The translations under genes and the position numbers were made by a program. Of a DNA stretch of 64,000 nt, positions 9,477 through 39,895 are shown in pieces. The stretch is from NCBI GenBank assembly GCA_965205335.1, contig OZ242164.1, positions 128,001-192,000 on the forward strand. Direction: 5' to 3'. The notes beneath the pieces were generated by a model. It was not told the origin of the DNA and searched no databases. It saw only the letters and a program-made list of their open reading frames with translations. The DNA is from Candidatus Woesearchaeota archaeon (lineage in GTDB: Archaea; Nanobdellota; Nanobdellia; Woesearchaeales; UBA583). Within the stretch, counting starts at the first letter, position 1, and each line of letters opens with the position of its first letter.

Positions 9477-10061
9477 TTAACTTAGTTTTGAATTTTCAAA
9501 GTCTTCTTTTTTAATTAAAACTTGTTTTAAAACACACTGTGACAATTCGTTTGAACGGGAAAAATCAGAATTTCTTTTTTTATCATAATATGTATATAGT
9601 ATAGTTTTTACGTTTTCACTGTCAATGTCTTTGATTACTGGTACAAAATCACTATCACAAGCAATTAATATTATTTTTTTTATATCAGAGAATTTGTAGG
9701 GTGTTTTTGATAAATCCATAGTTAAATGAGTATCTACACCTTTTTGAGTATATACAAATTTTCTATTCTTTTTCACTCTTTGGACTCTTCCCTCTCTAAT
9801 TGTAATGTTATTTCCAAGAGATAATTTGTGTACAAATTTATCATAGTTCTCTTTCTTTATGCTTTGTTCTCTAGTTGGTTTGCTTGAGATAAATGGAGGG
9901 GCTGTATAGTAAAATATATGTTCAACTTTTAATCTTTCTTTTTTTGCAAAGATTTCTGCTAATCTGAATATGTCATATTTTAAATATTTACCATTTCCAT
10001 AGTGTAAAGCTAATTTTGATAGAAATCCTGCATCAATAAAAATTAGAGTTTTTTCTGACAT
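9477..10061 (-). CDS. NYN-domain (LabA/DUF88, PIN-like) ribonuclease, class 1
   Basis: IFIDAGFL, FYYTAPP, QKGVDTHL, IACDSDFVP. Confidence 0.9.
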   Translation of the reverse strand: MSEKTLIFIDAGFLSKLALHYGNGKYLKYDIFRLAEIFAKKERLKVEHIFYYTAPPFISSKPTREQSIKKENYDKFVHKLSLGNNITIREGRVQRVKKNRKFVYTQKGVDTHLTMDLSKTPYKFSDIKKIILIACDSDFVPVIKDIDSENVKTILYTYYDKKRNSDFSRSNELSQCVLKQVLIKKEDFENSKLS

Positions 10062-10101
10062 AGAAATTCAACGTTAGAATTATTTATAAAGTTTTTCAGA
10101 A

Positions 10102-10154
10102 GAGGTGTAGAACTCATCTAGAAACCCCACCTCAAGATCTCTAGGGTGCATGTT
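10102..10154 (-). ncRNA. Putative pseudoknot sRNA upstream of NYN (class 1, copy 1)
   Basis: S1 CUAGAGAUCU/GGGUUUCUAG, S2 GAGGUG/CACCUC; own TATA box at ~10175-10184; covaries with the copy at 18039-18093. Confidence 0.65.
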
Positions 10155-10250
10155 AATTATTGTAATAATTCTATATTTATATAGTTTTCTATGTTTTCTT
10201 ACTTTTCTAAACTTTCTATACTGACTTAGGGTGTTAGGTGGATATTTTGC

Positions 10251-10836
10251 TCAGTTTCTTGTTCCCTCAAATTCCATTGAAAAGATTCTAGTGTAGATTG
10301 TAACTTTTACTCCTTTTTTTCCTTTAGTGAATAAATTTAAGGTTCTATCGTCTATGTAGTTGTCTATTAGTTTTATTGATTTTTTGGCATTTCTTATTAG
10401 GTCTGAGATAAATTTGTGTGCATCAAATAGTTGTCCTTCAAAGAATATTCCTTTTTGGGGTTTTATGTCAGGGTTTTTAAGTAGTGAGAATATTTTGTTG
10501 AAGTTGGTGTCATAGTCCAATAATTTGTTCTCAATAACATTTAATCTATATAGCATATCTTGATTTTCAGAAATAAATTTTTTCATTTCTATGAATGCAT
10601 TTATTATCTGAATGCTTATTTTGATTGCGGTTTTGCTGTGGAGTACTGCTGAGAGCATTGAAACTCCTTGTTCTGTAAAGACGTAAGGTAATTTTCTTCT
10701 CCCTCCATGTTCATAACTTGAAGTCACAATTTGTGACGTCAAGATTTCATATTCATGTTTAGTCATTTGGAACATAAATTCCTTTGGAAATCTCTCAATA
10801 TTTCTTTTTACTGCCTGATTTAGCACTTTTGTTTCA
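10251..10836 (-). pseudogene. 5'-truncated ORF6N-domain gene
   Basis: Near-identical to the 3' part of 18182-18868 but lacks the N-terminus. Confidence 0.8.
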
Positions 10837-10854
10837 TATAATGCAGTGTCCCTT

Positions 10855-11551
10855 TAGAGAATTCTTTCTTCTTCTGAAGGCACTTCAATTTCTTTTTTGC
10901 CATTTTCTTCATTTTTAGATTTATTAGAAACAAATTTTATTGAATATAAATATTTTTTTAAGGAAGTAATATTTCTAGGAATGAATAATTCCATAATGTA
11001 TTTTATTTTGGACAGTAGCAAAGAAATTTTTTGTCTGTACGGAGTTTTTGTCATAATCAATTGAAGTTGAGTAAATATCAGTTATTTTCTGGTAGAAATT
11101 CCTTTCACTTGTTCTTATGTCTCTTATTCGCTCAATTAGTTCGTCAAAATAGTTTTTGTCTAAGTCTCTGCCCTGTTTTAATTGTTTGTCATCTAAGACA
11201 AAGCCTTTTATGATGAATTCTTTTAAGTGTTTTGTTGCCCAGATTCTAAATGCAGTTGCTTTTTTTGAATTTACTCTGTAACCTACTGAAATTATAGCGT
11301 CAAGATTGTAGAATCTGACCTGATAAGTTTTGCCATCACTGGCAGTTATCCGATAATATTGGATAACTGAATTTTCTTTTAGTTCTCCACTTTCAAAGAT
11401 GTTTTTTAGGTGATGATTGATAGTTCTAATGTCCACTTCAAAGAGTTGTGCCATTAATCTTTGGGAAAGCCAGATGTTTTCATCTTTAAAGAAAACTTCA
11501 ATTCTGATTTCTTCATTTTTTCTATTGAATAAGACAAAATCTCTTGCTCAT
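10855..11551 (-). pseudogene. RhuM-family protein, frameshifted and truncated
   Basis: YNLDAIISVGYRVNSKKATAFRIWAT, ERIRDIRTSERNFYQKITD; broken 5' and 3' frames. Confidence 0.8.
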
Positions 11552-11753
11552 TTTTAATTAAATCATTTCTAAAACTTCTTTTATTTTGTTTTCTATAATT
11601 TCAATTAATAATTCATTTTGTTTTTTAATCTCTTCTTCTTTTTCAACTTCTGCAACAAATTCAGTTGCTTTTTACCTTAAATATGAATATTGTTTATAAT
11701 TTGTAGAGTTTCTGGAGTTTATAAGAATAGATGAATTAAATTTATAGAAAATA

Positions 11754-12722
11754 TTAAATAATTGTTGTAGATGAATTACAATATGGGCACTTTGCGATGG
11801 TGTAAGGTTTACCATAGATTATCTTATTACATTCAACACATCTCACTTCCTTTTCAGAATTATTTCCTTCAAATAATGATTTTGCTCTAGTTTTGGTTAA
11901 ATCTAATCCAAATAAGGATGCTGAATCAGATTTAAATTCAGGAATTGAATCTATAAATTTTGGTGTTAAAAAAAGAGTTTTTAGAGGTCTAGATATAGAA
12001 TTTTGATAATTTTCTTCTTCAAGTATTTGATCATCAGTAATTTTCTTGGTTTTAAATTCTTCTCTGAAAAATCTTGAGAGAGATTTGTAAAGTTTAATGT
12101 TAGATTTTTTTTTCTTTTTCCATTCTTTTTTCAGAAAAGAATTAATATTATCATCATTTAAGTTAGATATAAAATCTTTATCTACAGTAATAAGAATTAA
12201 CTCCTTACCATTATCTACATTTTCTAGGAGAATAAGCCAATTAATACAATCTCCATAAGAGTTATTTTTTCCAGGGGGATTTCCTTTCTTATATCTTTCT
12301 TCAGCTAAAGTTATAATTTTTCCATCAATTTTTATTATTGAATTTTTCTTAAATAACTTGCTAAAAGACTTATCTATAGTTAATTTTTCATTTGATGAAT
12401 CCTTTAATAATTTAGGATGTACCTTTTTAGCAAATTTATTAATTTCTTTAATTCTTTTTTCAATAGCTTTAATACTTTTATTATTTTTACAAAAAGATGG
12501 TGTACTAAATGATTTTTTTTCAAGATCTTTAATGCTTTTTAATGAGGCTTCTAATTTAGCTTCTCTATTTCTATAAAATTCATCAATTACTTGCTCTGTC
12601 AAATATAATTTTATTTTCTTAGTCTCAATTTTTTTAATTAATTCTTCCAACAAATTTGGATGGTCGTCAGTTAAACTATAAATTCTTAAAAATATATTTG
12701 CATCAATAAAAATATGCTTCAT
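11754..12722 (-). CDS. PIN-domain protein (DUF4935-like) with C-terminal Zn ribbon
   Basis: IFIDANIFL, PPGKNNSYGDCINW, ITVDKDF; CVEC...CPYC. Confidence 0.8.
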   Translation of the reverse strand: MKHIFIDANIFLRIYSLTDDHPNLLEELIKKIETKKIKLYLTEQVIDEFYRNREAKLEASLKSIKDLEKKSFSTPSFCKNNKSIKAIEKRIKEINKFAKKVHPKLLKDSSNEKLTIDKSFSKLFKKNSIIKIDGKIITLAEERYKKGNPPGKNNSYGDCINWLILLENVDNGKELILITVDKDFISNLNDDNINSFLKKEWKKKKKSNIKLYKSLSRFFREEFKTKKITDDQILEEENYQNSISRPLKTLFLTPKFIDSIPEFKSDSASLFGLDLTKTRAKSLFEGNNSEKEVRCVECNKIIYGKPYTIAKCPYCNSSTTII

Positions 12723-12771
12723 ATTTTTTTATATCTTCTTAAATTTAAATATTTTTTTTTCTTTAATGGTG

Positions 12772-13050
12772 TGTAGTGCCATAACATATGTCACCACCTT
12801 AACTTTCTCTGAAAGTTGTCAAACTCATAAGAAGAAGTTTGATTAAATAAACTCTCATAGTCTCTAAAAATATTGTGCCTCATACCTAAATAACTATAGA
12901 TATGCTTTTCACAGAGTATTTTCTTGCATTTAGAATAAGAGTTTCGCCTAACTCTTAATTTTATGAAAACTATTCTAATTTCGCCTTTTTACATAAATTT
13001 AACAAAAATTGTTAATTTTTAGACTGGTGACATATGTCATGATACTAACA
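12772..13050. mobile_element. Family-2 MITE/IS remnant with TGTAGTGCCATGACATATGTCACCA-type ends
   Basis: Imperfect terminal inverted repeats at both ends; related ends at ~20684-20755 and ~50108-50170. Confidence 0.7.
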
Positions 13051-13082
13051 CTTCTTTCATATTATAAATTATCATATGCTTT

Positions 13083-15686
13083 TTAATCCTCATAAACTAT
13101 CCAATAATTAAAATTTTTCTTCCGCCCATCCTTAAGTTCAATTTCCTCTGGAAATTCAAATGTGCCCATCTTTTCATTTAAACTAAATCTTTTTCTAACA
13201 TACAACCCAACTAAAGATGGATCTTTTGAAATTGAAGGAAGGAGATGGAATTTTTCAGATTTTTTCATTTCTAAAATCCTCTCAGGAGGAATTAGCTCAT
13301 TTGAATTAATATTTATTAATTTAGAGAACAATCTTGAAATTATAAACTGTTCAAATGGCTTATACTTATCTAAATCGTGTCCTCTAAACATAATCGGCAC
13401 GAGGAAAACATAACAGGTATCTTCTGTTACAGGATGTTTGTATGGATAATAGTAGCTAATCACTGGAAATTCATCTAAGATTTTAGGTCGACTGTGCATA
13501 AGAGAATAATTATAAATTTCATGAAACAAATCTTCAACTTTTTTTGGGTAAGAAGATATTCCTCTTGAATCAATTACATAACCTCTTGGCAAAGAATCTG
13601 GTTTTTCATATATTAAACTATATAATTTCGTTAAAACTGCATCAGGGCTTCTTCCAAAGAATTCTTGTGATATTTCCGGCTTACTTCTTATCATTAATTT
13701 CAATTCATCCAAATATTTATCATATAAAGAAATTAATCTATTTACATCCTCATCACTCCACGGAGAGTTAAGAATTGAAAACTTTGTTTCTTGTTCCAAG
13801 AAAGGCTCGAAAAGACCATATTTCTTAAAAAGTCTTTTTACTTCAGTAGGACTTGCTTCTCTTAAAAATTTTTTAAATGTCTCGGAGAGTGAAAAAATAT
13901 CTTTATTCTCTTCTTTATATTTTGAAATACTTAAATAGTAAGATTTGTATGGACCTTCAGAACTCCTTTTAATAATTGTTTGACAAATATTCTCTATTTT
14001 CTCTGTTTCATATTCACGTAATCTGTCTTTGTATAAACCAAGTTCAACTAATTGAGGCAATATCTCTTCCATATTAGGATTCTTTCCCTCCCACTTGAAT
14101 CCAAGCAAACTAAATAAACCTATATTTGATACAATGAATTTTTTATTAATTTCCTCAATATTACCAATTTTGGAGAAAACTTTCTTAAACGTCTTAGATC
14201 CTAAAAAAATACTTTTATTGTCTTCTTTATATTTTGAAATACTTAAATAGTAAGATTTGTATCCACCACCTTCAGAATTCCTCTTAATAATTGTTTGACA
14301 AATATTCTCTCTTTTCTCTGTTTCATATTCATTTAATCTGTCTTTGTATAAACCAAGTTCAACTAATTGAGGCAATATCTCTTCCATATTAGGATGCCTT
14401 CCCTCCCAAGTAAATTCAAGCAAATTAAATAAACTTTTATTTGGTTCAATGAATTCATTCTTAATTTCCTCAATATTACCAGTTTTGGAGGAAGCTTCAT
14501 TCTTATATTCGTTAAATGTCTTAGATCCTAAAAAAATACTTTTATTGTCTTCTTTATATTTTGAAATACTTAAATAGTAAGATTTGTATGAACCCTCAGA
14601 AGTCCTGTTGATAATTGTTTGACAAATATTCTCTCTTTTCTCTGTTTCATATTCATTTAATCTGTCTTTGTATAAACCAAGTTCAACTAATTGAGGCAAT
14701 ATCTCTTCCATATTAGGATCCTCTCTCTTCCAAGTAAATTCAAGCAAATTAAATAAACTTTTATTTTTTCGAATGAATTCAGCCTTAATTTCTTCAATAT
14801 TACCAATTTTGGAGAAAGCTTCATTCTTAAATTCGTTAAATGTCTTAGATCCTAAAAAAATACTTTTATTGTCTTCTTTATATTTTGAAATACTTAAATA
14901 GTAAGATTTGTAATTACTTTCAGAAGTCCTGTTGATAATTGTTTGACAAATATTCTCTCTTTTCTCTGTTTCATATTCACGTAATCTGTCTTTGTATAAA
15001 CCAAGTTCAACTAATTGAGGCAATATCTCTTCTATTGTAGGATTCTGTCGCTCCCACTTGAATCCAAGCAAATTAAATAAACTTTTATTTGATACAATGA
15101 ATTCATTCTTAATTTCCTCAATATTACCAGTTTTGGAGAAAGCTTCATTCTTATATTCGTTAAATGTCTTAGATTCTAAAAAAATACTTTTATTGTCTTC
15201 TTTATATTTTGAAATACTTAAATAGTAAGATTTGTATGGACCTTCAGAACTCCTTTTAATAATTGTTTGACAAATATTCTCTATTTCCTCTGTTTCATAT
15301 TCACGTAATCTGTCTTTGTATAAACCAAGTTCAACTAATTGAGGCAATATCTCTTCCCTAATAGGATGCTTTTCCTCCCACTTGAATCCAAGCAAACTAA
15401 ATAAACCATTATTTGATACAATGAATTTAGCCTTAATTTCCTCAATATTTTCTGGTAAAAATAATTGTTTGGAATGTAAAAATCCTCTCGTTTTCCAAGG
15501 TCCTACAAATCTAAATAAAGTATTAAGCAATTCCATTGAATGTTTGAGTTTTTCAAAGTTTGATTCTCCTGTCTCAGCTTTAAAATAATTTTCCTTTAAA
15601 TAGTTTACATATGCAATAAAATTATCCTTGTTGATGTTATCTTTTTTAGATACTAGTACTCCTTTAATGTCTTCAAAACGACTCAT
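13083..15686 (-). CDS. Hypothetical protein with ~5 x 108-aa tandem repeats and a Myb/SANT-like domain
   Basis: Repeated core EEILPQLVELGLYKDRL...KSYYLSISKYKE; PWSDEDVNRL...FGRSPDAV motif. Confidence 0.8.
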   Translation of the reverse strand: MSRFEDIKGVLVSKKDNINKDNFIAYVNYLKENYFKAETGESNFEKLKHSMELLNTLFRFVGPWKTRGFLHSKQLFLPENIEEIKAKFIVSNNGLFSLLGFKWEEKHPIREEILPQLVELGLYKDRLREYETEEIENICQTIIKRSSEGPYKSYYLSISKYKEDNKSIFLESKTFNEYKNEAFSKTGNIEEIKNEFIVSNKSLFNLLGFKWERQNPTIEEILPQLVELGLYKDRLREYETEKRENICQTIINRTSESNYKSYYLSISKYKEDNKSIFLGSKTFNEFKNEAFSKIGNIEEIKAEFIRKNKSLFNLLEFTWKREDPNMEEILPQLVELGLYKDRLNEYETEKRENICQTIINRTSEGSYKSYYLSISKYKEDNKSIFLGSKTFNEYKNEASSKTGNIEEIKNEFIEPNKSLFNLLEFTWEGRHPNMEEILPQLVELGLYKDRLNEYETEKRENICQTIIKRNSEGGGYKSYYLSISKYKEDNKSIFLGSKTFKKVFSKIGNIEEINKKFIVSNIGLFSLLGFKWEGKNPNMEEILPQLVELGLYKDRLREYETEKIENICQTIIKRSSEGPYKSYYLSISKYKEENKDIFSLSETFKKFLREASPTEVKRLFKKYGLFEPFLEQETKFSILNSPWSDEDVNRLISLYDKYLDELKLMIRSKPEISQEFFGRSPDAVLTKLYSLIYEKPDSLPRGYVIDSRGISSYPKKVEDLFHEIYNYSLMHSRPKILDEFPVISYYYPYKHPVTEDTCYVFLVPIMFRGHDLDKYKPFEQFIISRLFSKLININSNELIPPERILEMKKSEKFHLLPSISKDPSLVGLYVRKRFSLNEKMGTFEFPEEIELKDGRKKNFNYWIVYED
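13860..15450 (-). repeat. ~324-bp tandem repeat, about 5 units (approximate bounds)
   Basis: Recurrent ttaatttc(c/t)tcaatatt spaced ~324 bp; one unit is 315 bp. Confidence 0.9.
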
Positions 15687-15835
15687 TTTATATTAATGAA
15701 CAACTAATAGTTTTTATAAATATAACTTTTTTAAGGTACTAATTAATCTGGAATACTGACTGTCAATATCAATCTTAATCTGAAATACATGTTTATAACC
15801 ACTAAGATTTTTATATCTTATTGGATTTTTCCTGA

Positions 15836-16594
15836 CTAAATTAAGTTTATCTGAAATCCTCCAAAATACTCTAACAAACCAATTCTAACTGGACTTCTAC
15901 CCAAATACTTCCTCATAAAATAATTCAACCTATTCCCAATAATAGTATTTGCTACCTCAACAAATCTTCTAGGATATACAAATATATCACCATCAAAAGT
16001 TTCTCCTAAGGGACCGAATCTACCTGATAGATAGGATTTGGCATTCCTCAAATCTAAGGAATAACTTCCTGTTGCAATTATTCCAACTCCCTCACCTATC
16101 TTTCCTCTATCTACCAAATTTTTAAGTGCCATTGGCCAACCATTGTAAAATGTGACTTCATCTAGGATAATAATTAAGGGTTTGTGTTCATTAAACTTCT
16201 CAAGGAGTGCTTCAATCAACTCTTGCAAATTCTTCTTTGAATTTAAAACACCAAGTAGCTTTTCATTATCTAAAGAAAAATAAAGTAAAGACTTAGGTGA
16301 AACTCCTTCTTCAATTAGTTTCTTAGTAATGAATTTCAACATTGAAGTTTTTCCAATTCTCCTAGGACCTCTAATTACAACCATCCCAAATTTATTCCTC
16401 TCATTAAAATGTCTATCAAAAAAATTTTCTTTCAAATAAAAATATACTTTTGGGGGTTCATCACTAAGTCCCAAATTTTCAGCATCAACAATATACCTCA
16501 ATGCTTCATCTTCCTTGTACCAGTCTTCATTAGTAATCCAAGGACTTTCCTGCAAAACTAGATCTACTAAATCATCAATCTCCTTTCTTTCCAT
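15836..16594 (-). CDS. AAA+ ATPase (COG1373/AAA_14-like), probably 3'-truncated
   Basis: GPRRIGKT, IIILDEV, ATGS...LSGR; ends early for this family. Confidence 0.75.
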   Translation of the reverse strand: MERKEIDDLVDLVLQESPWITNEDWYKEDEALRYIVDAENLGLSDEPPKVYFYLKENFFDRHFNERNKFGMVVIRGPRRIGKTSMLKFITKKLIEEGVSPKSLLYFSLDNEKLLGVLNSKKNLQELIEALLEKFNEHKPLIIILDEVTFYNGWPMALKNLVDRGKIGEGVGIIATGSYSLDLRNAKSYLSGRFGPLGETFDGDIFVYPRRFVEVANTIIGNRLNYFMRKYLGRSPVRIGLLEYFGGFQINLI

Positions 16595-16684
16595 AATTAA
16601 TTACCTTCTTTTCTAATAAATTCTTGGAATAAGATCCAAAACTATTCTTGCTATTCAAACTCGTTCCCATATAATTTCTTTTCT

Positions 16685-17035
16685 TCAAATTCTTAGATTC
16701 CTCTTTTGCAAAACTTTGGAATATATGTTCTCAATCCTCTTATTCATTAGGTTCATTCTATTTGTGTTGTTGTGAATTTGCCTCTGCAAGTCTGAAATTT
16801 TTCTTGATATTTCTTTACTCTCTGTGCTTGAGGCTTCTTCATCTCTCTCAGCATTCTCTCCTCTTGATTTCTCAATATAATTCTTTATAGATTGAACTAT
16901 AAATTTTGATTTTGAAATATCTTCTTCTGAGACAACTGATTCCATTTCCCTTAACAATTCATTGTCTATTCTGAAACTAAGTTTATGTCCTTTGTTGAGT
17001 TTATTTTTTATAGGTTTGTTTAAGTTGTCTGACAT
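16685..17035 (-). CDS. Ribbon-helix-helix + coiled-coil protein
   Basis: LSFRIDNELLREM...SKSKFIVQSI. Confidence 0.65.
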   Translation of the reverse strand: MSDNLNKPIKNKLNKGHKLSFRIDNELLREMESVVSEEDISKSKFIVQSIKNYIEKSRGENAERDEEASSTESKEISRKISDLQRQIHNNTNRMNLMNKRIENIYSKVLQKRNLRI

Positions 17036-17192
17036 AATAATACAATGTGAGACATTATTTATAAACTTTGTTATTGTATGCCCTGAAACAGAATCTATGT
17101 TTCTTATTGGGTTTGTCTTTTATAGGTTTGTTTAAGTTGTCTGACATAATAATACAATGTGAGACATTATGTATAAACTTTGATATTGTATG
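17008..17192. repeat. ~75-bp direct duplication of the RHH gene promoter and start
   Basis: ttttataggtttgtttaagttgtctgacat...tattgtatg occurs twice. Confidence 0.85.
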
Positions 17193-17319
17193 GCTCTGTC
17201 CGGAAACTGTTTTCTCCAAAATCTATGCTAACTATATTCAATCAAAGAAAAAAATTATTTGTTAAAAATTACTTTATTGATACAATATTTTAAGTTCTCT
17301 TGAATTTCCAGACAGAGCC
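17192..17319. mobile_element. Family-1 MITE (complete)
   Basis: GGCTCTGTCCGGAAACT...AATTTCCAGACAGAGCC, 128 bp. Confidence 0.9.
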
Positions 17320-17425
17320 TAAAAGATAGTTCTAATCAAAATTTATCTGTAATTCATTCTTGTGACTCACATTCTTAGCACTATTTTCAAATCTCTTTAA
17401 AATCTCTTCCTTGGGTTCATTTCTT

Positions 17426-17998
17426 TCAATTTTCAAAGTCTTCTTTTTTAATTAAAACATATTTTTCCACATTCTGTAATAATTCATTTGACCTTGAAAA
17501 ATTAGTATTTCTGTCTCTATTAAAATAAGTGTAAAGAATTGTTTTAACTCCCTTTTTGTAAGCATTGTTTATCGCAGGAATAAAATCAGTATCACATGCA
17601 ATTAGAATTACATTTTTTATATTTGGATATTTAGCAGAAGTCTCAATTAAATCAATAGTTAGCAAAGTATCAACTCCTTTTTGAGAAAACTTGTACCTAT
17701 TACCCTCTTTTACTCTTTGACACCTTCCTTCTCTTATAGTAATTATTGAATTTTTCTTAAGTTTTAGAAGAAATTTATCATAATTTTCTTTTCTTCTGTT
17801 TTCATCTTCTGTTGGTCTATTTGAAACAAATGGTGGGGCAGTATAATAAAAAATCCTTTCAATCTTAAAATTTTCTTTTTTAGCAAAAATATTTAGTAAA
17901 CTAGTTATATCAAATTTCAGATATTTTCCATTTCCCAAGTATTGAGAGAGTTTTGAAAGAAATCCAGCATCAACTAGTATAAGTGTTCTCCTATTCAT
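17426..17998 (-). CDS. NYN-domain ribonuclease, class 1
   Basis: ILVDAGFL, FYYTAPP, QKGVDTLL, IACDTDFIP. Confidence 0.9.
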   Translation of the reverse strand: MNRRTLILVDAGFLSKLSQYLGNGKYLKFDITSLLNIFAKKENFKIERIFYYTAPPFVSNRPTEDENRRKENYDKFLLKLKKNSIITIREGRCQRVKEGNRYKFSQKGVDTLLTIDLIETSAKYPNIKNVILIACDTDFIPAINNAYKKGVKTILYTYFNRDRNTNFSRSNELLQNVEKYVLIKKEDFEN

Positions 17999-18038
17999 TA
18001 AGAATTCTTAGAAGAAATACTTTATAAATTTTATCTAA

Positions 18039-18093
18039 GGGGGTGTAGAACATCATCTAGAAACCCCACCCCGAGATCTCTAGGGTGCATGTT
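18039..18093 (-). ncRNA. Putative pseudoknot sRNA upstream of NYN (class 1, copy 2)
   Basis: S1 CUAGAGAUCU/GGGUUUCUAG, S2 GGGGUG/CACCCC; own TATA box upstream. Confidence 0.65.
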
Positions 18094-18181
18094 AGTTTAT
18101 TCTAAGACTTCTTTATTTATATAGTTTTCTATGTTTTCTAAACTTTCTATACTGACTTAGGGTGTTAGGTGGATATTTTGC

Positions 18182-18868
18182 TCAGTTTCTTGTTCCCTCA
18201 AATTCCATTGAAAAGATTCTAGTGTAGATTGTAACTTTTACTCCTTTTTTTCCTTTAGTGAATAAATTTAAGGTTCTATCGTCTATGTAGTTGTCTATTA
18301 GTTTTATTGATTTTTTGGCATTTCTTATTAGGTCTGAGATAAATTTGTGTGCATCAAATAGTTGTCCTTCAAAGAATATTCCTTTTTGGGGTTTTATGTC
18401 TGGGTTTTTAAGTAGTGAGAATATTTTGTTGAAGTTGGTGTCATAGTCCAATAATTTGTTCTCAATAACATTTAATCTATATAGCATATCTTGATTTTCA
18501 GAAATAAATTTTTTCATTTCTATGAATGCATTTATTATCTGAATGCTTATTTTGATTGCGGTTTTGCTGTGGAGTACTGCTGAGAGCATTGAAACTCCTT
18601 GTTCTGTAAAGACGTAAGGTAATTTTCTCCTTCCTCCATGTTTATGACTTGAAGTCACAATTTGTGACATCAAGTTTTCATATTCTTGTTTGATCATTTG
18701 AAACATAAATTCTTTTGGGAATCTTTCAATATTTCTTTTTACTGCTTGATTTAGCACTTTTGTTTCAACTTGGTAGAATTTAGCCAAATCAGAATCAAGC
18801 ATGACTTGAACTCCTCTAATGATATGAATTTTGTTTTTTATGTTTTTGATTAATTCAGCTCTTTCCAT
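18182..18868 (-). CDS. ORF6N-domain DNA-binding protein
   Basis: IRGVQVMLDSDLAKFYQVETKVLNQAVKRNIERFP; PYVFTEQGVSMLS. Confidence 0.9.
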   Translation of the reverse strand: MERAELIKNIKNKIHIIRGVQVMLDSDLAKFYQVETKVLNQAVKRNIERFPKEFMFQMIKQEYENLMSQIVTSSHKHGGRRKLPYVFTEQGVSMLSAVLHSKTAIKISIQIINAFIEMKKFISENQDMLYRLNVIENKLLDYDTNFNKIFSLLKNPDIKPQKGIFFEGQLFDAHKFISDLIRNAKKSIKLIDNYIDDRTLNLFTKGKKGVKVTIYTRIFSMEFEGTRN

Positions 18869-20759: not shown

Positions 20760-21302
20760 ATTCTCTGTAAAAAAACTTATTTAGAATTTATTTATTTATT
20801 AAGTGTGTTACTTCAAATTCTTTTAAAAGTTTCTGGGATATGTTTTTTTCAAAATAGCATAATTCTATTTTTTTATTGTTTTCTTTTAGATTCTTAATTA
20901 CTGGGATAAAATCTCCATCACCACTAATTAGAATGAATTTTTCACAAATGTTTTCATAGTTACATTTAAGCATATCAACTGCTAAATTTACATCATCTCC
21001 TTTGATTATATATTGTTCTTTTTCCTCAATTAATCTTTTATGTCTCTTGCATAGGATAATATTGAAATTTTTAATTTTTCTTAATCTTTTAAAAAATTCC
21101 TGTTGTTTTACAAATAAATTTTCAAGACCCTTTAATTTTTTTAGAGAACCATTATAATAAAAGATTTCTACTATAATTTCTTTGTCTCCTATTAAATAAT
21201 TTATATATTTTTCAAAATCAAAACTAATATCAGAATATCTCTTATTTATTGTCCTAACACCATAGAAGAAATTAGCCCCATCTATAAAAAACAAACTTTC
21301 AT
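20760..21302 (-). pseudogene. NYN-domain ribonuclease, class 2, inactivated
   Basis: FIDGANFFYG, KGDDVNLAVD, SGDGDF; 1-nt deletion after codon 3 and premature TAA at 20788 versus the paralogue at 25704. Confidence 0.8.
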
Positions 21303-21369
21303 TTTAAAAACCCATTTGTAAACCAAATGGGATACCTAGCAAGTTTTTTTTAGGAACTCTGAAACCTAC
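21303..21369 (-). ncRNA. Putative pseudoknot + hairpin leader RNA of NYN (class 2, copy A)
   Basis: UAGG-UUUCAGAGUU-CCUA-A7-CUUG, then hairpin CCCAUUUG/CAAAUGGG; TATA at ~21388-21397. Confidence 0.6.
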
Positions 21370-25633: not shown

Positions 25634-25700
25634 TAAGTTTCATGGTCACTTGTAAAAAAACCTGCTTCGTATTCCCTCCCTCATTCGTGATGGAGGTTTT
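25634..25700 (+). ncRNA. Putative pseudoknot + hairpin leader RNA of NYN (class 2, copy B)
   Basis: UAAG-UUUCAUGGUCA-CUUG-UA7-CCUG, then a CCUCC..UUCG..GGAGG hairpin; TATA at 25606-25615. Confidence 0.6.
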
Positions 25701-25703
25701 AAA

Positions 25704-26261
25704 ATGAAAGTTCTTGTTTTTATAGATGGTGCTAATTTCTTTTATGGCATAAGAAGTATTAGATCTAAATATAGTGATTTAAATTTTAATTTTGAAAAAT
25801 ATATAAAAAATGAGATTTTAAAAGAAGCAGATGAATTATTGAACGTTTTCTATTACAATGCTCCATTAAAAAACTTAGGTGGAAATAATAATCTGTATGC
25901 TAAACAACAAAGATTTTTTATAAAATTAGAGAAAACAGAAAAGTTCAAAGTAATTTTGTGTAAAAGGCAGAAGAGATTAAATGAAAGAGGAGAAGAGTTT
26001 CACGTAATTAAAGGTGATGACATTCATTTAGCAGTTGATTTAGTTAGATGTTTATATGAAACAGAAGTTGATAAGATAATTTTAATGAGTGGAGATGGGG
26101 ATTTCAAACCTGCAATCAGATTGGCAAAAGAGAAAGATAAAATTGTAAATCTGTGTTATTTTAAAGATAACATTTCTAAGAATATTTATAATATAACAAA
26201 TCAGAAGTATTTAATAGATAAAAGAATTTTAAATAAATATTTTTATAGATGGAAAAAATGA
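25704..26261 (+). CDS. NYN-domain ribonuclease, class 2 (intact)
   Basis: VFIDGANFFYG, KGDDIHLAVD, SGDGDFKP. Confidence 0.9.
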   Translation: MKVLVFIDGANFFYGIRSIRSKYSDLNFNFEKYIKNEILKEADELLNVFYYNAPLKNLGGNNNLYAKQQRFFIKLEKTEKFKVILCKRQKRLNERGEEFHVIKGDDIHLAVDLVRCLYETEVDKIILMSGDGDFKPAIRLAKEKDKIVNLCYFKDNISKNIYNITNQKYLIDKRILNKYFYRWKK

Positions 26262-38467: not shown

Positions 38468-38791
38468 TTAACTTAGTTTTGAATTTTCAAAGTCTTCTTT
38501 TTTAATTAAAACATATTTTTCCACATTCTGTAATAATTCATTTGACCTTGAAAAATTAGTATTTCTGTCTCTATTAAAATAAGTGTAAAGAATTGTTTTA
38601 ACTCCCTTTTTGTAAGCATTGTTTATCGCAGGAATAAAATCAGTATCACATGCAATTAGAATTACATTTTTTATATTTGGATATTTAGCAGAAGTCTCAA
38701 TTAAATCAATAGTTAGCAAAGTATCAACTCCTTTTTGAGAAAACTTGTACCTATTACCCTCTTTTACTCTTTGACACCTTCCTTCTCTTAT
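38468..38791 (-). pseudogene. 3' half of a class-1 NYN gene (chimera of the 17426 and 9477 copies)
   Basis: Body matches 17428-17737; tail and flank match 9449-9490. Confidence 0.85.
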
Positions 38792-39895
38792 GTTATCATC
38801 AAGTCTTTATTTTTCATAAATTTAACTAAAAATTTTGATTTCTTTATTTATAAAAGTTTAATCCATTCTATAAGTTATTAGAAAATTAAGTATTTAAGAA
38901 TAATTCCTTTGCATCTAAATATTAAAAGTAGAAATTCAAATTCCTATTGTCTTACTATCATTGAGTAGAGAAAACTATATAAATAATAATCTCTTATTAT
39001 TTTAAGTATTAAAGAGAGTTTTCACAATAAAACTCTTAAATGTTAAAAGGCATGCATTTAGTTATTTAAGAATCATATAAACTTTATATGATGGTGCAAG
39101 TTTCTTTTTAATTAACAATGGAAACAACAATTAATTTAGAAGAGAGAATAGGAAACCATATATATAATGGAGATTTTATGGGAGGAATAGAAAGTCCTTC
39201 AAAGAGGAATTTTTTAAAGAAACTTGGGGTTGGTTTAGTTAGTTTAGTAGGTTATGCAACATTATGTAGTTCAGAGGCAAATGCGCAGGGCTTACCACCG
39301 GGGATAGCAAACTGCCGTGATAGAGCAATAAGAATATTATATAGAGATCAAGTTGGAGAAGACAGAGGAAGGAGCAGCTATGGAAGCATTAATAATAGGC
39401 TGAATGGTGTAATTGGTGGATTCTTTGACAGTGTATTAGTAGAGGATAAGTCAAAAAGGATTGAGCCGGCATTGTACTTGTTAAGAGAACAAATTAATCA
39501 CAAATACCGTAGTGGGCTTGGTATTACTGTTAGATTGCCGGAGGTTAGGGATGTGCCTCAGATGTTAAATTTTGATAGAGGAATTAAAAATTTTTATATT
39601 TCTTATATTTATCAGTGGGCAGGTCGTTATATCCCGCATGAAAAAAGCATAGGGAGTGAACAGACAAAAAGAGCGACTGAGAGTAATTTTGTCCATTCAA
39701 TAGCATACGCTGCATATTCTGATACTGAAACAGCAGAACAAAAAGCAAAAGAATATTTAGAGTCAGATATGGAAGGAAAAACAAGAGTAGTTATGGACAT
39801 AAAAAAACAATTTGAGGAAATGAGTAATGGAGACAAAGAATCAAGAGACCCAAGAGACCCGTACAACAGAAAACTCGCAGCATCCTGGAGTAGTT
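38782..39895 (+). repeat. Left arm of a ~1.11-kb inverted repeat
   Basis: Reverse complement of 54293-55405 (one 1-nt indel seen). Confidence 0.92.
38952..39117 (+). promoter_or_regulatory. 166-bp conserved cassette leader, copy 1
   Basis: BRE-TATA agaaaactatataaata, several hairpins and a T-tract; six copies in the window. Confidence 0.85.

Follow-up and report, generated by a model that had tools for sequence, protein, structure and literature searches.

Two NYN loci and a shared upstream element

In a 64-kb stretch of DNA from a DPANN archaeon (the window, that is, the whole stretch analysed), two intact genes encode class-1 NYN ribonucleases that are only 61% identical, whereas the element of about 50 nt ahead of each gene differs between the loci by three substitutions and one indel, in line with the near-invariance first ascribed to it. 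These loci raise the question of what the element is and how it relates to the nuclease encoded downstream. The initial annotation had read it as a separately promoted pseudoknot sRNA serving as a type III-like antitoxin. The features concerned are given below in window coordinates.

10174–10190, minus strand: first promoter of copy 1, BRE/TATA (agaaaactatataaata), from the window sequence
10102–10151, minus strand: RNA element of copy 1, putative leader (covariance model 50.9 bits, E 7e-7)
10149–10151, minus strand: AUG of the copy 1 element
10135–10144 and 10118–10127, minus strand: 5′ and 3′ arms of helix S1, copy 1
10128–10134, minus strand: loop with the 5′ arm of helix S2, copy 1
10108–10117, minus strand: AUGA and L3, copy 1
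10102–10107, minus strand: 3′ arm of S2, copy 1
10083–10090, minus strand: second TATA-like box of copy 1 (TTTATAAA), 28–29 nt ahead of the NYN ATG
9477–10061, minus strand: class-1 NYN ribonuclease gene, copy 1 (194 aa; Pfam PF01936, 36.1 bits)
18114–18130, minus strand: first promoter of copy 2, BRE/TATA (agaaaactatataaata), within a segment near-identical in both loci
18040–18090, minus strand: RNA element of copy 2, putative leader (covariance model 44.3 bits, E 1.6e-5)
18088–18090, minus strand: AUG of the copy 2 element
18074–18083 and 18057–18066, minus strand: 5′ and 3′ arms of S1, copy 2
18067–18072 and 18040–18045, minus strand: 5′ and 3′ arms of S2, copy 2
18046–18056, minus strand: L3, copy 2
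18021–18028, minus strand: second TATA-like box of copy 2 (TTTATAAA), from the window sequence
17426–17998, minus strand: class-1 NYN ribonuclease gene, copy 2 (190 aa; Pfam PF01936, 42.7 bits)
38483–38794, minus strand: third class-1 NYN copy, 5′-truncated, aligning to copy 2 residues 87–190

The order initially described was found at both loci, with agaaaactatataaata followed by a diverged spacer of 22–23 nt, the element, TTTATAAA and the NYN ORF, all on the minus strand; in copy 1, the TTATAA begins 31 nt ahead of the A of the element AUG. The core pattern of the element occurs twice in the window against an expectation of zero in 100 shuffles, and matches to the pattern or to the covariance model number only two in the whole 1.2-Mb genome. 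The truncated third NYN copy is 99% identical to copy 2 over residues 87–190 and has no covariance-model match to the leader element. Over about 280 bp upstream, from the 3′ half of an ORF6N gene up to and including the first TATA, the two loci are almost the same, a likeness that, as judged from the sequence, results from a recent duplication or conversion. Because of this near-identity, the common first promoter is not independent evidence within the genome, and such evidence is supplied by the relatives. The window NYN loci adjoin PDC-S05 and PIN genes.

The NYN protein family

Both window ORFs match NYN (PF01936) in the Pfam scan, scoring 36.1 and 42.7 bits where the cut-off is 24.2, and at E ≤ 0.01 this was the only family matched by either protein, with no match to ToxN/AbiQ, CptN or TenpN. 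In an alignment of 10 NYN homologues, residues D10, D110, D136 and D138 are invariant; PMC5499597 refers to 'four conserved acidic residues' in NYN. The AlphaFold2 model of copy 2 reached a mean pLDDT of 88, and the fold search against the PDB was uninformative. Among the PADLOC profiles, only NYN and HEC-09 were matched by the two proteins: copy 1 matched the HEC-09 profile, which has no curated cut-off, weakly (E 2.8e-5) with residues 24–193, covering most of the profile, and copy 2 did not match it. Proteins of the PF01936 family are abundant, yet largely uncharacterised; according to a 2017 survey of the PIN superfamily, none had been studied for nuclease function.

Linkage of the element to class-1 NYN genes

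The element was found upstream of all 27 full-length class-1 NYN genes obtained by protein search (28 elements), with one element per gene in 26 of the 27; in G229, two tandem promoter-plus-element units are present, each with its own TATA. A covariance-model search added seven elements in 151 genomes, each directly upstream of an NYN gene, four of which are intact and three degraded. In total, 35 elements were recovered from 28 genomes and one metagenome contig, all 35 on the NYN strand and directly upstream of the gene, and no orphan element without an NYN neighbour was found among them. Within the window's family/genus, the genomes bearing the element are exactly those bearing the gene (4 of 20), and the spread across the phylum is patchy (23 of 401 genomes). 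Additionally, the degraded NYN copies L085 and L083 retain intact hairpins. These data identify a conserved structured RNA that is specifically and exclusively coupled to class-1 NYN genes.

No neighbouring protein conserved across loci was found, which bears out the earlier remark that no protein antitoxin is evident beside the NYN genes. In G014, the element–NYN module adjoins a gene that we read as hsdS by our own inspection, and the module is flanked by a direct repeat of ~133 bp whose sequence is that of the upstream gene's 3′ end.

Helix S1 and the proposed pseudoknot

The core of the element is S1, a 10-bp helix that reads CUAGAGAUCU/GGGUUUCUAG in the window copies. The wider alignments upheld its covariation: across 28 sequences, 97.9% of the 280 cells are paired and double changes occur in 7 of the 10 pairs, a score reached by none of 500 shuffles, while slid controls were paired at 30–47%; in the 37-row alignment, 8 of the 10 pairs have changed on both sides. 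As many as 28 distinct stems occur among the 35 elements. G-U pairs occupy 77 of the 350 stem cells (22%), and therefore the fold works on the sense strand only, as expected of a strand-specific RNA. The general layout comprises seven unpaired nucleotides (AUGAnCC), the 10-bp hairpin, in most cases with a tetraloop of the UNCG or GNRA type, then (G)AUGA and, in most lineages, oligo-U. Nested minimum-free-energy folding of the window copies by a program that does not model pseudoknots was no better than for shuffles (z = -0.18 and -0.97). Rfam 15 gave no match at gathering scores in the 64-kb window, and the 271 nt around copy 1 gave only chance-level hits (E 2.2–8.7; 13–17 bits against cut-offs of 50–70). 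The initial remark that no NYN-plus-pseudoknot system is known to have been described agrees with the absence of the element from Rfam and from the literature searched. The hairpin is a real, previously undescribed RNA and a probable partner or regulator of an NYN nuclease in tiny DPANN archaea.

The H-type pseudoknot originally drawn fared differently in its two helices, since S1 is backed by covariation but S2 is possible in only 4 of the 35 elements, all from the window's genus. In those four sequences, 6 of 6 S2 pairs form and two pairs are compensatory: the change from GAGGUG/CACCUC to GGGGUG/CACCCC is present as reported, and G015 adds GGGGUA/UACCCC. Conservation of S2 across the family was not borne out by the wider alignment, because 28 of the 35 elements have a loop of only 4 nt, with which S2 cannot form; 25 of these were scored so directly, and for three the scoring gave a 9-bp stem and a 2-nt loop. 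The S2 pseudoknot is therefore a real candidate for the G000/G014/G015 lineage only. In the window's genus, the loop would have grown to 7 nt and would pair with the downstream CACCUC, giving a pseudoknot or an alternative helix.

Promoters and transcript layout

A TTATAA lies 28–34 nt ahead of the element AUG in 32 of the 35 loci, and ordinary ORFs in the window have their TATA-to-ATG spacing in the same range. It is inferred from this spacing that transcription from the first TATA probably starts at or beside the conserved AUG. Within 24 nt past the hairpin, a T-run of at least five is found in 24 of the 35 loci and a T4 run in eight; this U-tract persists at loci whose upstream ORF (uORF) has already stopped. 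In both window copies, the longest T-run after the hairpin is T2, and the discrete sRNA initially proposed was not supported, as these copies lack the oligo-U 3′ end that would define one.

A promoter of its own for NYN, as first suggested, is indicated for about 9 of the 35 loci, including those of the window, where a TATA-like box lies 27–31 nt ahead of the NYN ATG, but not for about 25 others, in which the element either sits in the 5′ leader of the gene or has fused with its ORF. This second box, of which comparable versions occur in G014 and G015 and which is absent where the element–NYN spacer measures 7–45 nt, is a candidate promoter for a leaderless NYN mRNA in some lineages only. An NYN mRNA started from it would not carry the hairpin, an arrangement more in keeping with action in trans than in cis. 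Elsewhere, a GGAGG-like Shine-Dalgarno sequence stands between the element and the NYN ATG (13 loci, read by eye), the spacer is only 7–19 nt (about nine loci, read by eye), or the element is fused in frame to the NYN ORF (three loci, with a plain 5′ UTR at about 22). Where a locus has such a Shine-Dalgarno sequence, short spacer or fusion, the element must therefore belong to the NYN mRNA.

Proposed cis regulation and alternative explanations

The explanation that we favour, at a probability of roughly 45%, is that the class-1 NYN transcription unit would begin with the element as its conserved 5′-terminal leader RNA, and that this leader or attenuator would be dedicated to the control of NYN. 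The oligo-U tract would act as an archaeal terminator or attenuator, with most transcripts ending as a hairpin RNA of ~45–55 nt and read-through alone yielding the NYN mRNA. The hairpin and its conserved flanks may form a recognition site at which the NYN RNase, proposed as the binder because it is the only co-inherited protein, binds or cuts its own leader, and this binding or cutting would provide feedback control of a potentially harmful nuclease. The geometry of an attenuator, with a structured element and a U-tract between the predicted start and the NYN ATG, is present in most loci, the window copies being without the U-tract. In the window's genus, the U-tract would have decayed and a second promoter appeared; together with the long loop, these are local elaborations and not the core design. 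Against such a leader, the tandem units of G229 look like dosage of a trans-acting RNA, and the window copies have no T-run and a nested folding energy no better than that of shuffles.

Trans action as an RNA antitoxin or inhibitor is possible, though less likely. Hairpin RNA in excess over NYN mRNA would hold the NYN RNase inactive in a type III-like manner, and loss of the RNA, for instance through infection or transcription shut-off, would free the nuclease. ToxIN has its promoter, RNA, terminator and RNase gene on one strand, and the succession of promoter, RNA, U-tract and RNase gene at the NYN loci is the same layout. This role is also favoured by the solitary NYN gene, which has no conserved protein partner, by the patchy distribution and by the variable or defence-type contexts (the putative hsdS in G014; PDC-S05 and PIN genes in the window), as well as by the intact hairpins of degraded NYN copies; moreover, the second-promoter loci and the tandem RNA units of G229 imply that the RNA can work outside the NYN mRNA. 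However, the element lies inside the NYN ORF at three loci and is simply 5′ UTR at about 22, there is little surface on a bare 10-bp hairpin with which a specific inhibitory complex could be built, and the nearest tested candidate, the weakly matching HEC-09, gave no phage defence in E. coli. In type III systems, the antitoxin is encoded by direct repeats in tandem, with units of ~34–36 nt, whereas Tandem Repeats Finder detected no array at 10102–10151 or 18040–18090. The pseudoknot fold of a type III antitoxin RNA, which its toxin processes and which inhibits that toxin within a closed RNP, is possible in only the four elements already mentioned. The proposed likeness to type III systems breaks down at their defining features, as the nuclease does not belong to the ToxN, CptN or TenpN families and tandem repeats are lacking. 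The layout is compatible with an antitoxin role and equally with a cis-regulatory or autoregulatory leader. Tentatively, the loci might constitute a new DPANN RNA–protein toxin–antitoxin or defence module, in which the stand-alone NYN RNase is checked by a dedicated hairpin RNA of ~50 nt that derives from the 5′ end of the NYN transcription unit and is released by an oligo-U terminator. If so, type III-like logic would here be combined with an unrelated toxin fold and no repeat array, and the pseudoknotted, separately promoted version in the window genome would be a derived form whose RNA is now an independent gene. To our knowledge, no earlier RNA-antitoxin pairing has been described for an NYN nuclease or for archaea.

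It is unlikely that a leaderless mini-ORF accounts for the element, with the 5′-terminal AUG being translated, ribosomes controlling NYN by termination–reinitiation or by melting of the hairpin, and the RNA fold being secondary. The AUG does stand at the canonical position, where leaderless genes start, in 29 of the 35 elements, the frame is open into NYN at three loci (L049, L066 and L067), and in 10 of 25 scored loci the uORF ends no more than 5 nt from where NYN starts (UAAUG or AUGA overlaps, counted without a chance control). However, AUA occupies the canonical position in the other six, four of which have no start codon and two an in-frame AUG/GUG 3 nt upstream, and the length of the uORF varies from 9 to 44 aa; at several loci (L058, L076, L038, L059 and L081) it already ends within the hairpin. 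A loop of 5 or 9 nt changes the reading frame, a frameshifting indel separates the window copies, and the substitutions are base-pair-preserving doubles. Codon periodicity is also lacking, with mean column entropies of 0.74, 0.92 and 1.00 at codon positions 1, 2 and 3, and of 0.67, 0.74 and 0.77 within the stem. The short uORF, considered from the outset as a possible source of the conservation, therefore does not explain it, as neither frame nor stop is conserved and there is no third-position excess. Far less probable is a DNA-level signal, in which the inverted repeat would bind a protein as an operator, serve in recombination or mark where a mobile cassette ends. The module does move between contexts, the ~133 bp direct repeat flanks it in G014, and duplication and conversion have taken place beside the element in the window; nevertheless, the 22% of G-U cells would turn into A-C mismatches in the complementary strand or in a palindromic duplex, the arms covary rather than hold a fixed sequence, the element always lies at a fixed distance downstream of the TATA on the NYN strand, and the insertion boundary in G014 lies 45 nt or more ahead of the TATA and not at the hairpin. 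Finally, the likeness of the two window copies could be merely the tail of a recent duplication without function, given the ~280 bp of near-identical sequence immediately upstream. However, the two loci have diverged in the spacer that separates this segment from the element, and 27 other genomes and one metagenome contig contain homologous elements in which compensatory changes have occurred, on which grounds this explanation was rejected.

Significance and comparison with known systems

The dedicated, covariation-backed RNA of this NYN subfamily gives experimenters a concrete candidate substrate, regulator or inhibitor. On any of the three readings, as an autoregulatory leader, an attenuator or an RNA antitoxin, it would rank among the few defined regulatory RNAs of DPANN archaea, in which gene regulation is almost unknown. 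Should the nuclease be neutralised by the RNA, the principle of RNA antitoxins would reach archaea and a new toxin fold. With 35 sequences from 28 genomes available as a seed, the hairpin motif could also readily be proposed as a new RNA family.

Among known systems, type III toxin–antitoxin systems (ToxIN, CptIN and TenpIN) share with the NYN loci a noncoding RNA immediately upstream of an RNase gene on the same strand, at most loci a putative terminator-like signal between RNA and nuclease, the absence of a protein antitoxin and a patchy, defence-island-like spread, and a pseudoknot is possible in the window's genus. The NYN loci differ in the fold of the nuclease (NYN, PIN-like, against ToxN, AbiQ, CptN and TenpN), in an RNA that is a single simple hairpin in 31 of the 35 elements and often just 5′ UTR or part of an ORF, and in their archaeal host with a leaderless-type start.

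HEC-09 (PADLOC PDLC04163) is presented in its report as an NYN-domain defence candidate embedded in Hma systems, with no defence against the phages tested in E. coli (Payne et al., 10.1101/2024.01.29.577857). Like the window proteins, it is a stand-alone NYN protein found in restriction or defence loci, as with the putative hsdS neighbour in G014, but it has an N-terminal HTH-like part, and the passages of that report consulted here mention no RNA element.

Rae1/YacP, an RNase of the NYN family from Bacillus subtilis, cleaves mRNA within a short ORF that is being translated. An NYN-type RNase and a short ORF are thus common to both cases, the leaderless mini-ORF here overlapping the leader hairpin. 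However, Rae1 belongs to NYN_YacP (PF05991) and not to PF01936, its targets lie elsewhere in the genome, and the mini-ORF of the NYN loci is not conserved as a coding sequence.

Autoregulatory RNase hairpins are known from the E. coli rne 5′ UTR, from the rnc leader and from Regnase-1 (ZC3H12A), a PIN-like RNase with a stem-loop in its own 3′ UTR. As in these cases, the NYN loci place a conserved stem-loop in the RNase's own transcript, where it could be bound or cut to set the level of the enzyme, and the cis arrangement is strictly conserved. In contrast, other enzyme families and other RNA motifs are involved there; the hairpin of the putative NYN leader is at the extreme 5′ end, in an element that begins at the AUG and continues into oligo-U, and some lineages have a second promoter that bypasses it. 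The NYN hairpin also resembles the leader and attenuator motifs of Rfam, which are likewise short, backed by covariation, associated with one gene family and located between promoter and start codon.

Organization of the Two NYN Loci

The source genome consists of one contig of 1.2 Mb and is 95% complete. NYN copies 1 and 2 (minus strand, 9477-10061 and 17426-17998) encode proteins of 194 and 190 aa, respectively, both above the curated cut-off of Pfam NYN. The initial annotation had described a promoter, a spacer, an element, a second box and the NYN ATG for each gene, and these parts were recovered exactly as described at both loci.

Features upstream of the two class-1 NYN genes
Upstream of both NYN copies, minus strand: first promoter, agaaaactatataaata, read in the sequence
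22-23 nt, minus strand: spacer from agaaaactatataaata to the element, diverged between the two loci
10102-10151 and 18040-18090, minus strand: element of ~50 nt, starting with ATG, seen in the sequence
Between the element and the NYN ATG at both loci, minus strand: TTTATAAA box, seen in the sequence

The two elements differ by one indel and three substitutions, and the element core occurs twice in the window, where none would be expected, and no more than twice in the whole genome. Since the loci are near-identical over ~280 bp of upstream sequence, which includes the 3′ half of the ORF6N gene and reaches down to the first TATA, the shared first promoter belongs to a recent duplication or conversion. 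Therefore, taken by themselves, the window copies carry little weight as evidence. On the minus strand, the segments 10174-10450 and 18114-18381 are near-identical save for one 9-bp indel, this identity breaking at the promoter, whereas the adjoining NYN proteins are only 61% identical. The ORF6N copy at 10251-10826 is shorter at its N-terminus and abuts a RhuM fragment. Additionally, a third class-1 NYN copy (38483-38794, minus strand), 5′-truncated and devoid of the leader element, shares 99% identity with residues 87-190 of copy 2, while its C-terminal tail and downstream sequence resemble copy 1, so that it looks like a recombinant remnant.

Coupling of the Element to Class-1 NYN Genes

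Homologue searches were performed with the NYN protein, rather than the element, as query, and matches were obtained in 8 of 401 genomes of the order and in 23 of 401 genomes of the phylum; the related genome G014 was first found by DNA search. A metagenome scan with a 3-protein alignment confirmed at least one locus among the matches listed, the peptide patterns being unselective, so that the figure carries no information on how common the locus is in metagenomes. The element was present upstream, on the same strand, of all 27 full-length close NYN homologues (E ~4e-43 or better), these 27 genes yielding 28 elements because genome G229 carries two in tandem. In the latter locus (L041), the two TATA-plus-element units (674-725 and 765-816) precede a single NYN gene and have identical stems, with U-tracts of 5 and 8 nt. 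Five weaker NYN relatives (L061-L064 and L069; E 1e-16 to 1e-27), like the truncated window copy, were excluded when the elements were aligned and gave no model match where the element was expected, other hairpins preceding the start codon in three of these five relatives.

The 28 elements served to build a covariance model, which was run independently of gene annotation. It recovered the two known copies and nothing else in the window's own genome, matches in 4 of 20 genomes of the family, which were exactly those with the NYN gene, and 16 places spread over 12 of the 151 genomes from the class. All seven places newly found by the model lie directly upstream of an NYN coding sequence, intact in four cases (191-194 aa) and degraded in three, and no element copy apart from NYN genes was detected among the genomes searched. 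Thus, the proposed coupling of a conserved structured RNA to class-1 NYN genes was borne out by 27/27 full-length genes and by 7/7 new model places. Two weak model matches, L063:753-817 (22 bits) and L005:2793-2847 (21 bits), are probably false. BLASTN with the 91-nt element against 60 relatives retrieved G014 only, the remaining matches being AT-rich promoter fragments, which indicates that sequence search by itself badly underestimates the family. A scan of 185,579 species genomes with the 18-nt core returned G014 and five chance matches in bacteria, and viral contigs contained neither the core (0 matches) nor homologues of the NYN protein.

At four loci (L072, L076, L059 and L081), Glu takes the place of the first conserved Asp in the (F/I)IDAG motif (LIES, FIES, LIEA and LTEA). 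The substitution might mean that these nucleases are altered or inactive, although the leader hairpin is retained.

Structure of the Element

The elements share a common order consisting of A(C/A)AUGAnCC, a 10-bp helix (S1) with its loop and return arm, (G)AUGA and a U-rich stretch. In a MAFFT alignment of 28 sequences, S1 pairing was found in 97.9% of 280 cells and two-sided changes in 7 of the 10 pairs (e.g., U-A/C-G, A-U/G-C and A-U/U-A). The covariation score was reached by none of 500 shuffles, and pairing fell to 30-47% when the partner was slid by 1-3 columns. A consistent result, two-sided changes in 8 of 10 pairs, came from the 37 distinct rows of a model-fitted alignment (A5), which is model-leaning and takes in the two doubtful matches at L063 and L005. 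The S1 helix initially drawn from the window is thus well established by covariation in a wider alignment, with 28 distinct stems among 35 elements. The loop measures 4 nt in 25 of these elements, and in effect also in three for which the script scored 2 nt, the others having 5 (two elements), 7 (four) or 9 nt (one). The frequent loops UACG, UUCG and GAAA are stable tetraloop types. Minimum free energy folding of the window copies with a nested-only program gave z-scores of -0.18 and -0.97, that is, no thermodynamic support. C/D-box or k-turn motifs, a bulge-helix-bulge intron, a tRNA fragment or att site, and slippage at the U-tract were all considered and dropped on inspection.

The H-type pseudoknot initially proposed is a candidate fold for a small part of the family: the second helix, S2, can pair, with compensatory changes, in four elements, while the rest of the 35 cannot form it. 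These four are the elements with a 7-nt loop, namely the two window copies and those of G014 and G015. All four come from a single genus, in which G005 has a loop of 5 nt. Within them, all six S2 pairs form, with two-sided changes at pair 2 (A-U/G-C) and pair 6 (G-C/A-U), which is suggestive of pairing, in only four related sequences. The loops of this fold in the window's genus (1 nt, 0 nt and 10-12 nt) seem to fit the geometry of H-type pseudoknots. S1 and S2 might also be alternative helices, since nested folding of copy 1 takes S2 in place of S1. In either case, S2 is a lineage-specific addition and no property of the whole family. Its arms would pair 10128-10133 with 10102-10107 and 18067-18072 with 18040-18045. 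The 5′ arm (GAGGUG or GGGGUG) is Shine-Dalgarno-like and the 3′ arm (CACCUC(C) or CACCCC) resembles the 16S rRNA 3′ end. The conserved AUG within GAUGA follows 10 nt past the Shine-Dalgarno-like arm, in a frame that is not kept between the window copies.

Probable Transcript Ends and Position of the Element Relative to NYN

At 32 of 35 loci, the distance from the start of TTATAA to the A of the element AUG is 28-34 nt (mode 31-32), and TATA-like words with equal spacing precede the first ATG of 44 long ORFs in the window. As the element AUG thus occupies the start position of this organism's leaderless genes, transcription most likely initiates at or beside it. Oligo-T is an archaeal intrinsic termination signal, and a T-run of at least 5 occurs within 24 nt past the hairpin at 24/35 loci, with a run of 4 at 8/35. 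In most lineages, termination at this oligo-T would thus leave many transcripts as a hairpin RNA of ~45-55 nt. The three exceptions include both window copies, where no U-tract delimits a discrete sRNA.

Four layouts were distinguished by eye, rather than counted by script, at the 35 loci. A GGAGG-like Shine-Dalgarno sequence lies 5-10 nt before the NYN ATG and 23-45 nt from the hairpin at 13 loci, and a hairpin-to-ATG gap of 7-19 nt was seen at about 9. The frame from the element start remains open into NYN at three loci (L049, L066 and L067). About 9 loci, including those of the window, G014, G015, G005, G514, G455 and G105, have a spacer of at least 48 nt and a TATA-like box that precedes the NYN ATG by 27-31 nt. 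The separate NYN promoter claimed from the window is thus found in this last group, whereas elsewhere the element is the NYN leader or is fused to the gene. On this reading, the prevailing layout is cis, with the element as the 5′ end of the NYN mRNA, and the separately promoted layout is derived and confined to a minority of loci.

Genomic Neighbourhood

An all-against-all ORF comparison of 34 loci revealed no conserved neighbour besides NYN, in agreement with the earlier remark that no adjacent protein antitoxin is evident. The class-1 NYN gene has a patchy distribution and is often found in variable regions. In G014 (L005), the promoter-element-NYN unit is bracketed by near-identical direct repeats of ~133 bp (~1290-1422 and ~2226-2358) that correspond to the 3′ end of an upstream 384-aa gene. 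This gene is read as hsdS, the specificity subunit of a type I restriction-modification system, and the module looks as if it had been inserted by recombination into that locus.

Neighbours of the NYN loci in the window include an ORF6N protein corresponding to the PADLOC candidate PDC-S05 (E 4.6e-91), a PIN_12 protein, a RhuM fragment and an AAA_14 ATPase. NYN copy 1 itself weakly matched PADLOC HEC-09 (E 2.8e-5), a NYN candidate embedded in defence loci, for which the published test found no protection (10.1101/2024.01.29.577857). A PDB sequence profile search gave 0 matches. Between the two NYN loci lies an 867-aa ORF (13083-15686, minus strand) with a weak PADLOC 'E2' match and 4.8 tandem 324-bp repeats (13892-15449, 90% match).

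Two further NYN genes, with Pfam scores of 69.7 and 60.1 bits, have in common a leader of their own at 21300-21350 (minus strand) and 25655-25706 (plus strand), AAAAAAAC(U/C)UGCU..GUAU(C/U)CC, with a terminal hairpin followed directly by U4-5 and AAAAUG. In other genomes, the distant NYN relatives L063, L064 and L069 carry a 10-bp hairpin and a U-run ahead of the start codon. Leaders with RNA structure may be a general trait of the phylum's NYN genes.

Possible Roles of the Element

The data show a structured RNA element that is found exclusively with class-1 NYN genes, at a fixed promoter distance and under strong pairing constraint. Since it lies within the NYN mRNA in the majority layout and NYN is the sole co-inherited protein, a cis-acting leader or attenuator with feedback via NYN is ranked first, with a probability of about 0.45. 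According to this model, transcription would begin at the element AUG and terminate at the U-tract, leaving a hairpin RNA of ~45-55 nt, and NYN would recognize the leader RNA, giving feedback. A type III-like inhibitor RNA acting in trans, which would agree with the loci with a second promoter, the tandem RNA units of G229, the lack of a partner protein and the mobile, defence-like distribution, is somewhat unlikely: neither the toxin family nor the repeats are those of type III systems, the pseudoknot occurs in only 4/35 elements, and NYN is only a putative toxin. A DNA-level site is very improbable, as G-U pairs occupy 77 of 350 stem cells and limit the fold to the NYN-sense strand, which favours RNA over a duplex DNA site.

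Control centred on the short upstream ORF was also considered. The element AUG is kept in 29/35 elements, and the mini-ORF stop lies no more than 5 nt from the NYN start codon (UAAUG or AUGA) in 10 of 25 scored loci, a count uncorrected for chance, from a script that skipped 6 loci and put the NYN start at the wrong place in L047 and L038. The stop overlaps the NYN start as UAAUG in L046, L051 and L054 and as AUGA in L052, L056 and L083, and termination-reinitiation coupling of the two frames is possible from such overlaps. However, the suggestion that this ORF explains the conservation of the element did not hold with regard to frame, length and periodicity. Four elements have AUA without an alternative start, ORF lengths vary from 9 to 44 codons and stops fall inside the hairpin at several loci. 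Moreover, the frame is shifted by changes in loop length, yet GAUGA and the U-tract persist downstream, and codon periodicity is absent (entropies at codon positions 1-3 of 0.74, 0.92 and 1.00). Control centred on this ORF is accordingly regarded as improbable, and the cis-acting leader remains the preferred reading.

Comparison with Known Systems

Rfam 15, in which a described family might have been recognized, contains no match to the element, and no NYN-plus-RNA module was found in the literature covered by full-text search; the RNA motif is therefore treated as undescribed. According to a 2017 survey of the PIN superfamily, PF01936 members had not been examined for nuclease function (PMC5499597). 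The element-NYN module belongs to neither the RNase-leader nor the type III arrangements, to both of which it is similar in design, as a two-part module consisting of an element and a nuclease gene.
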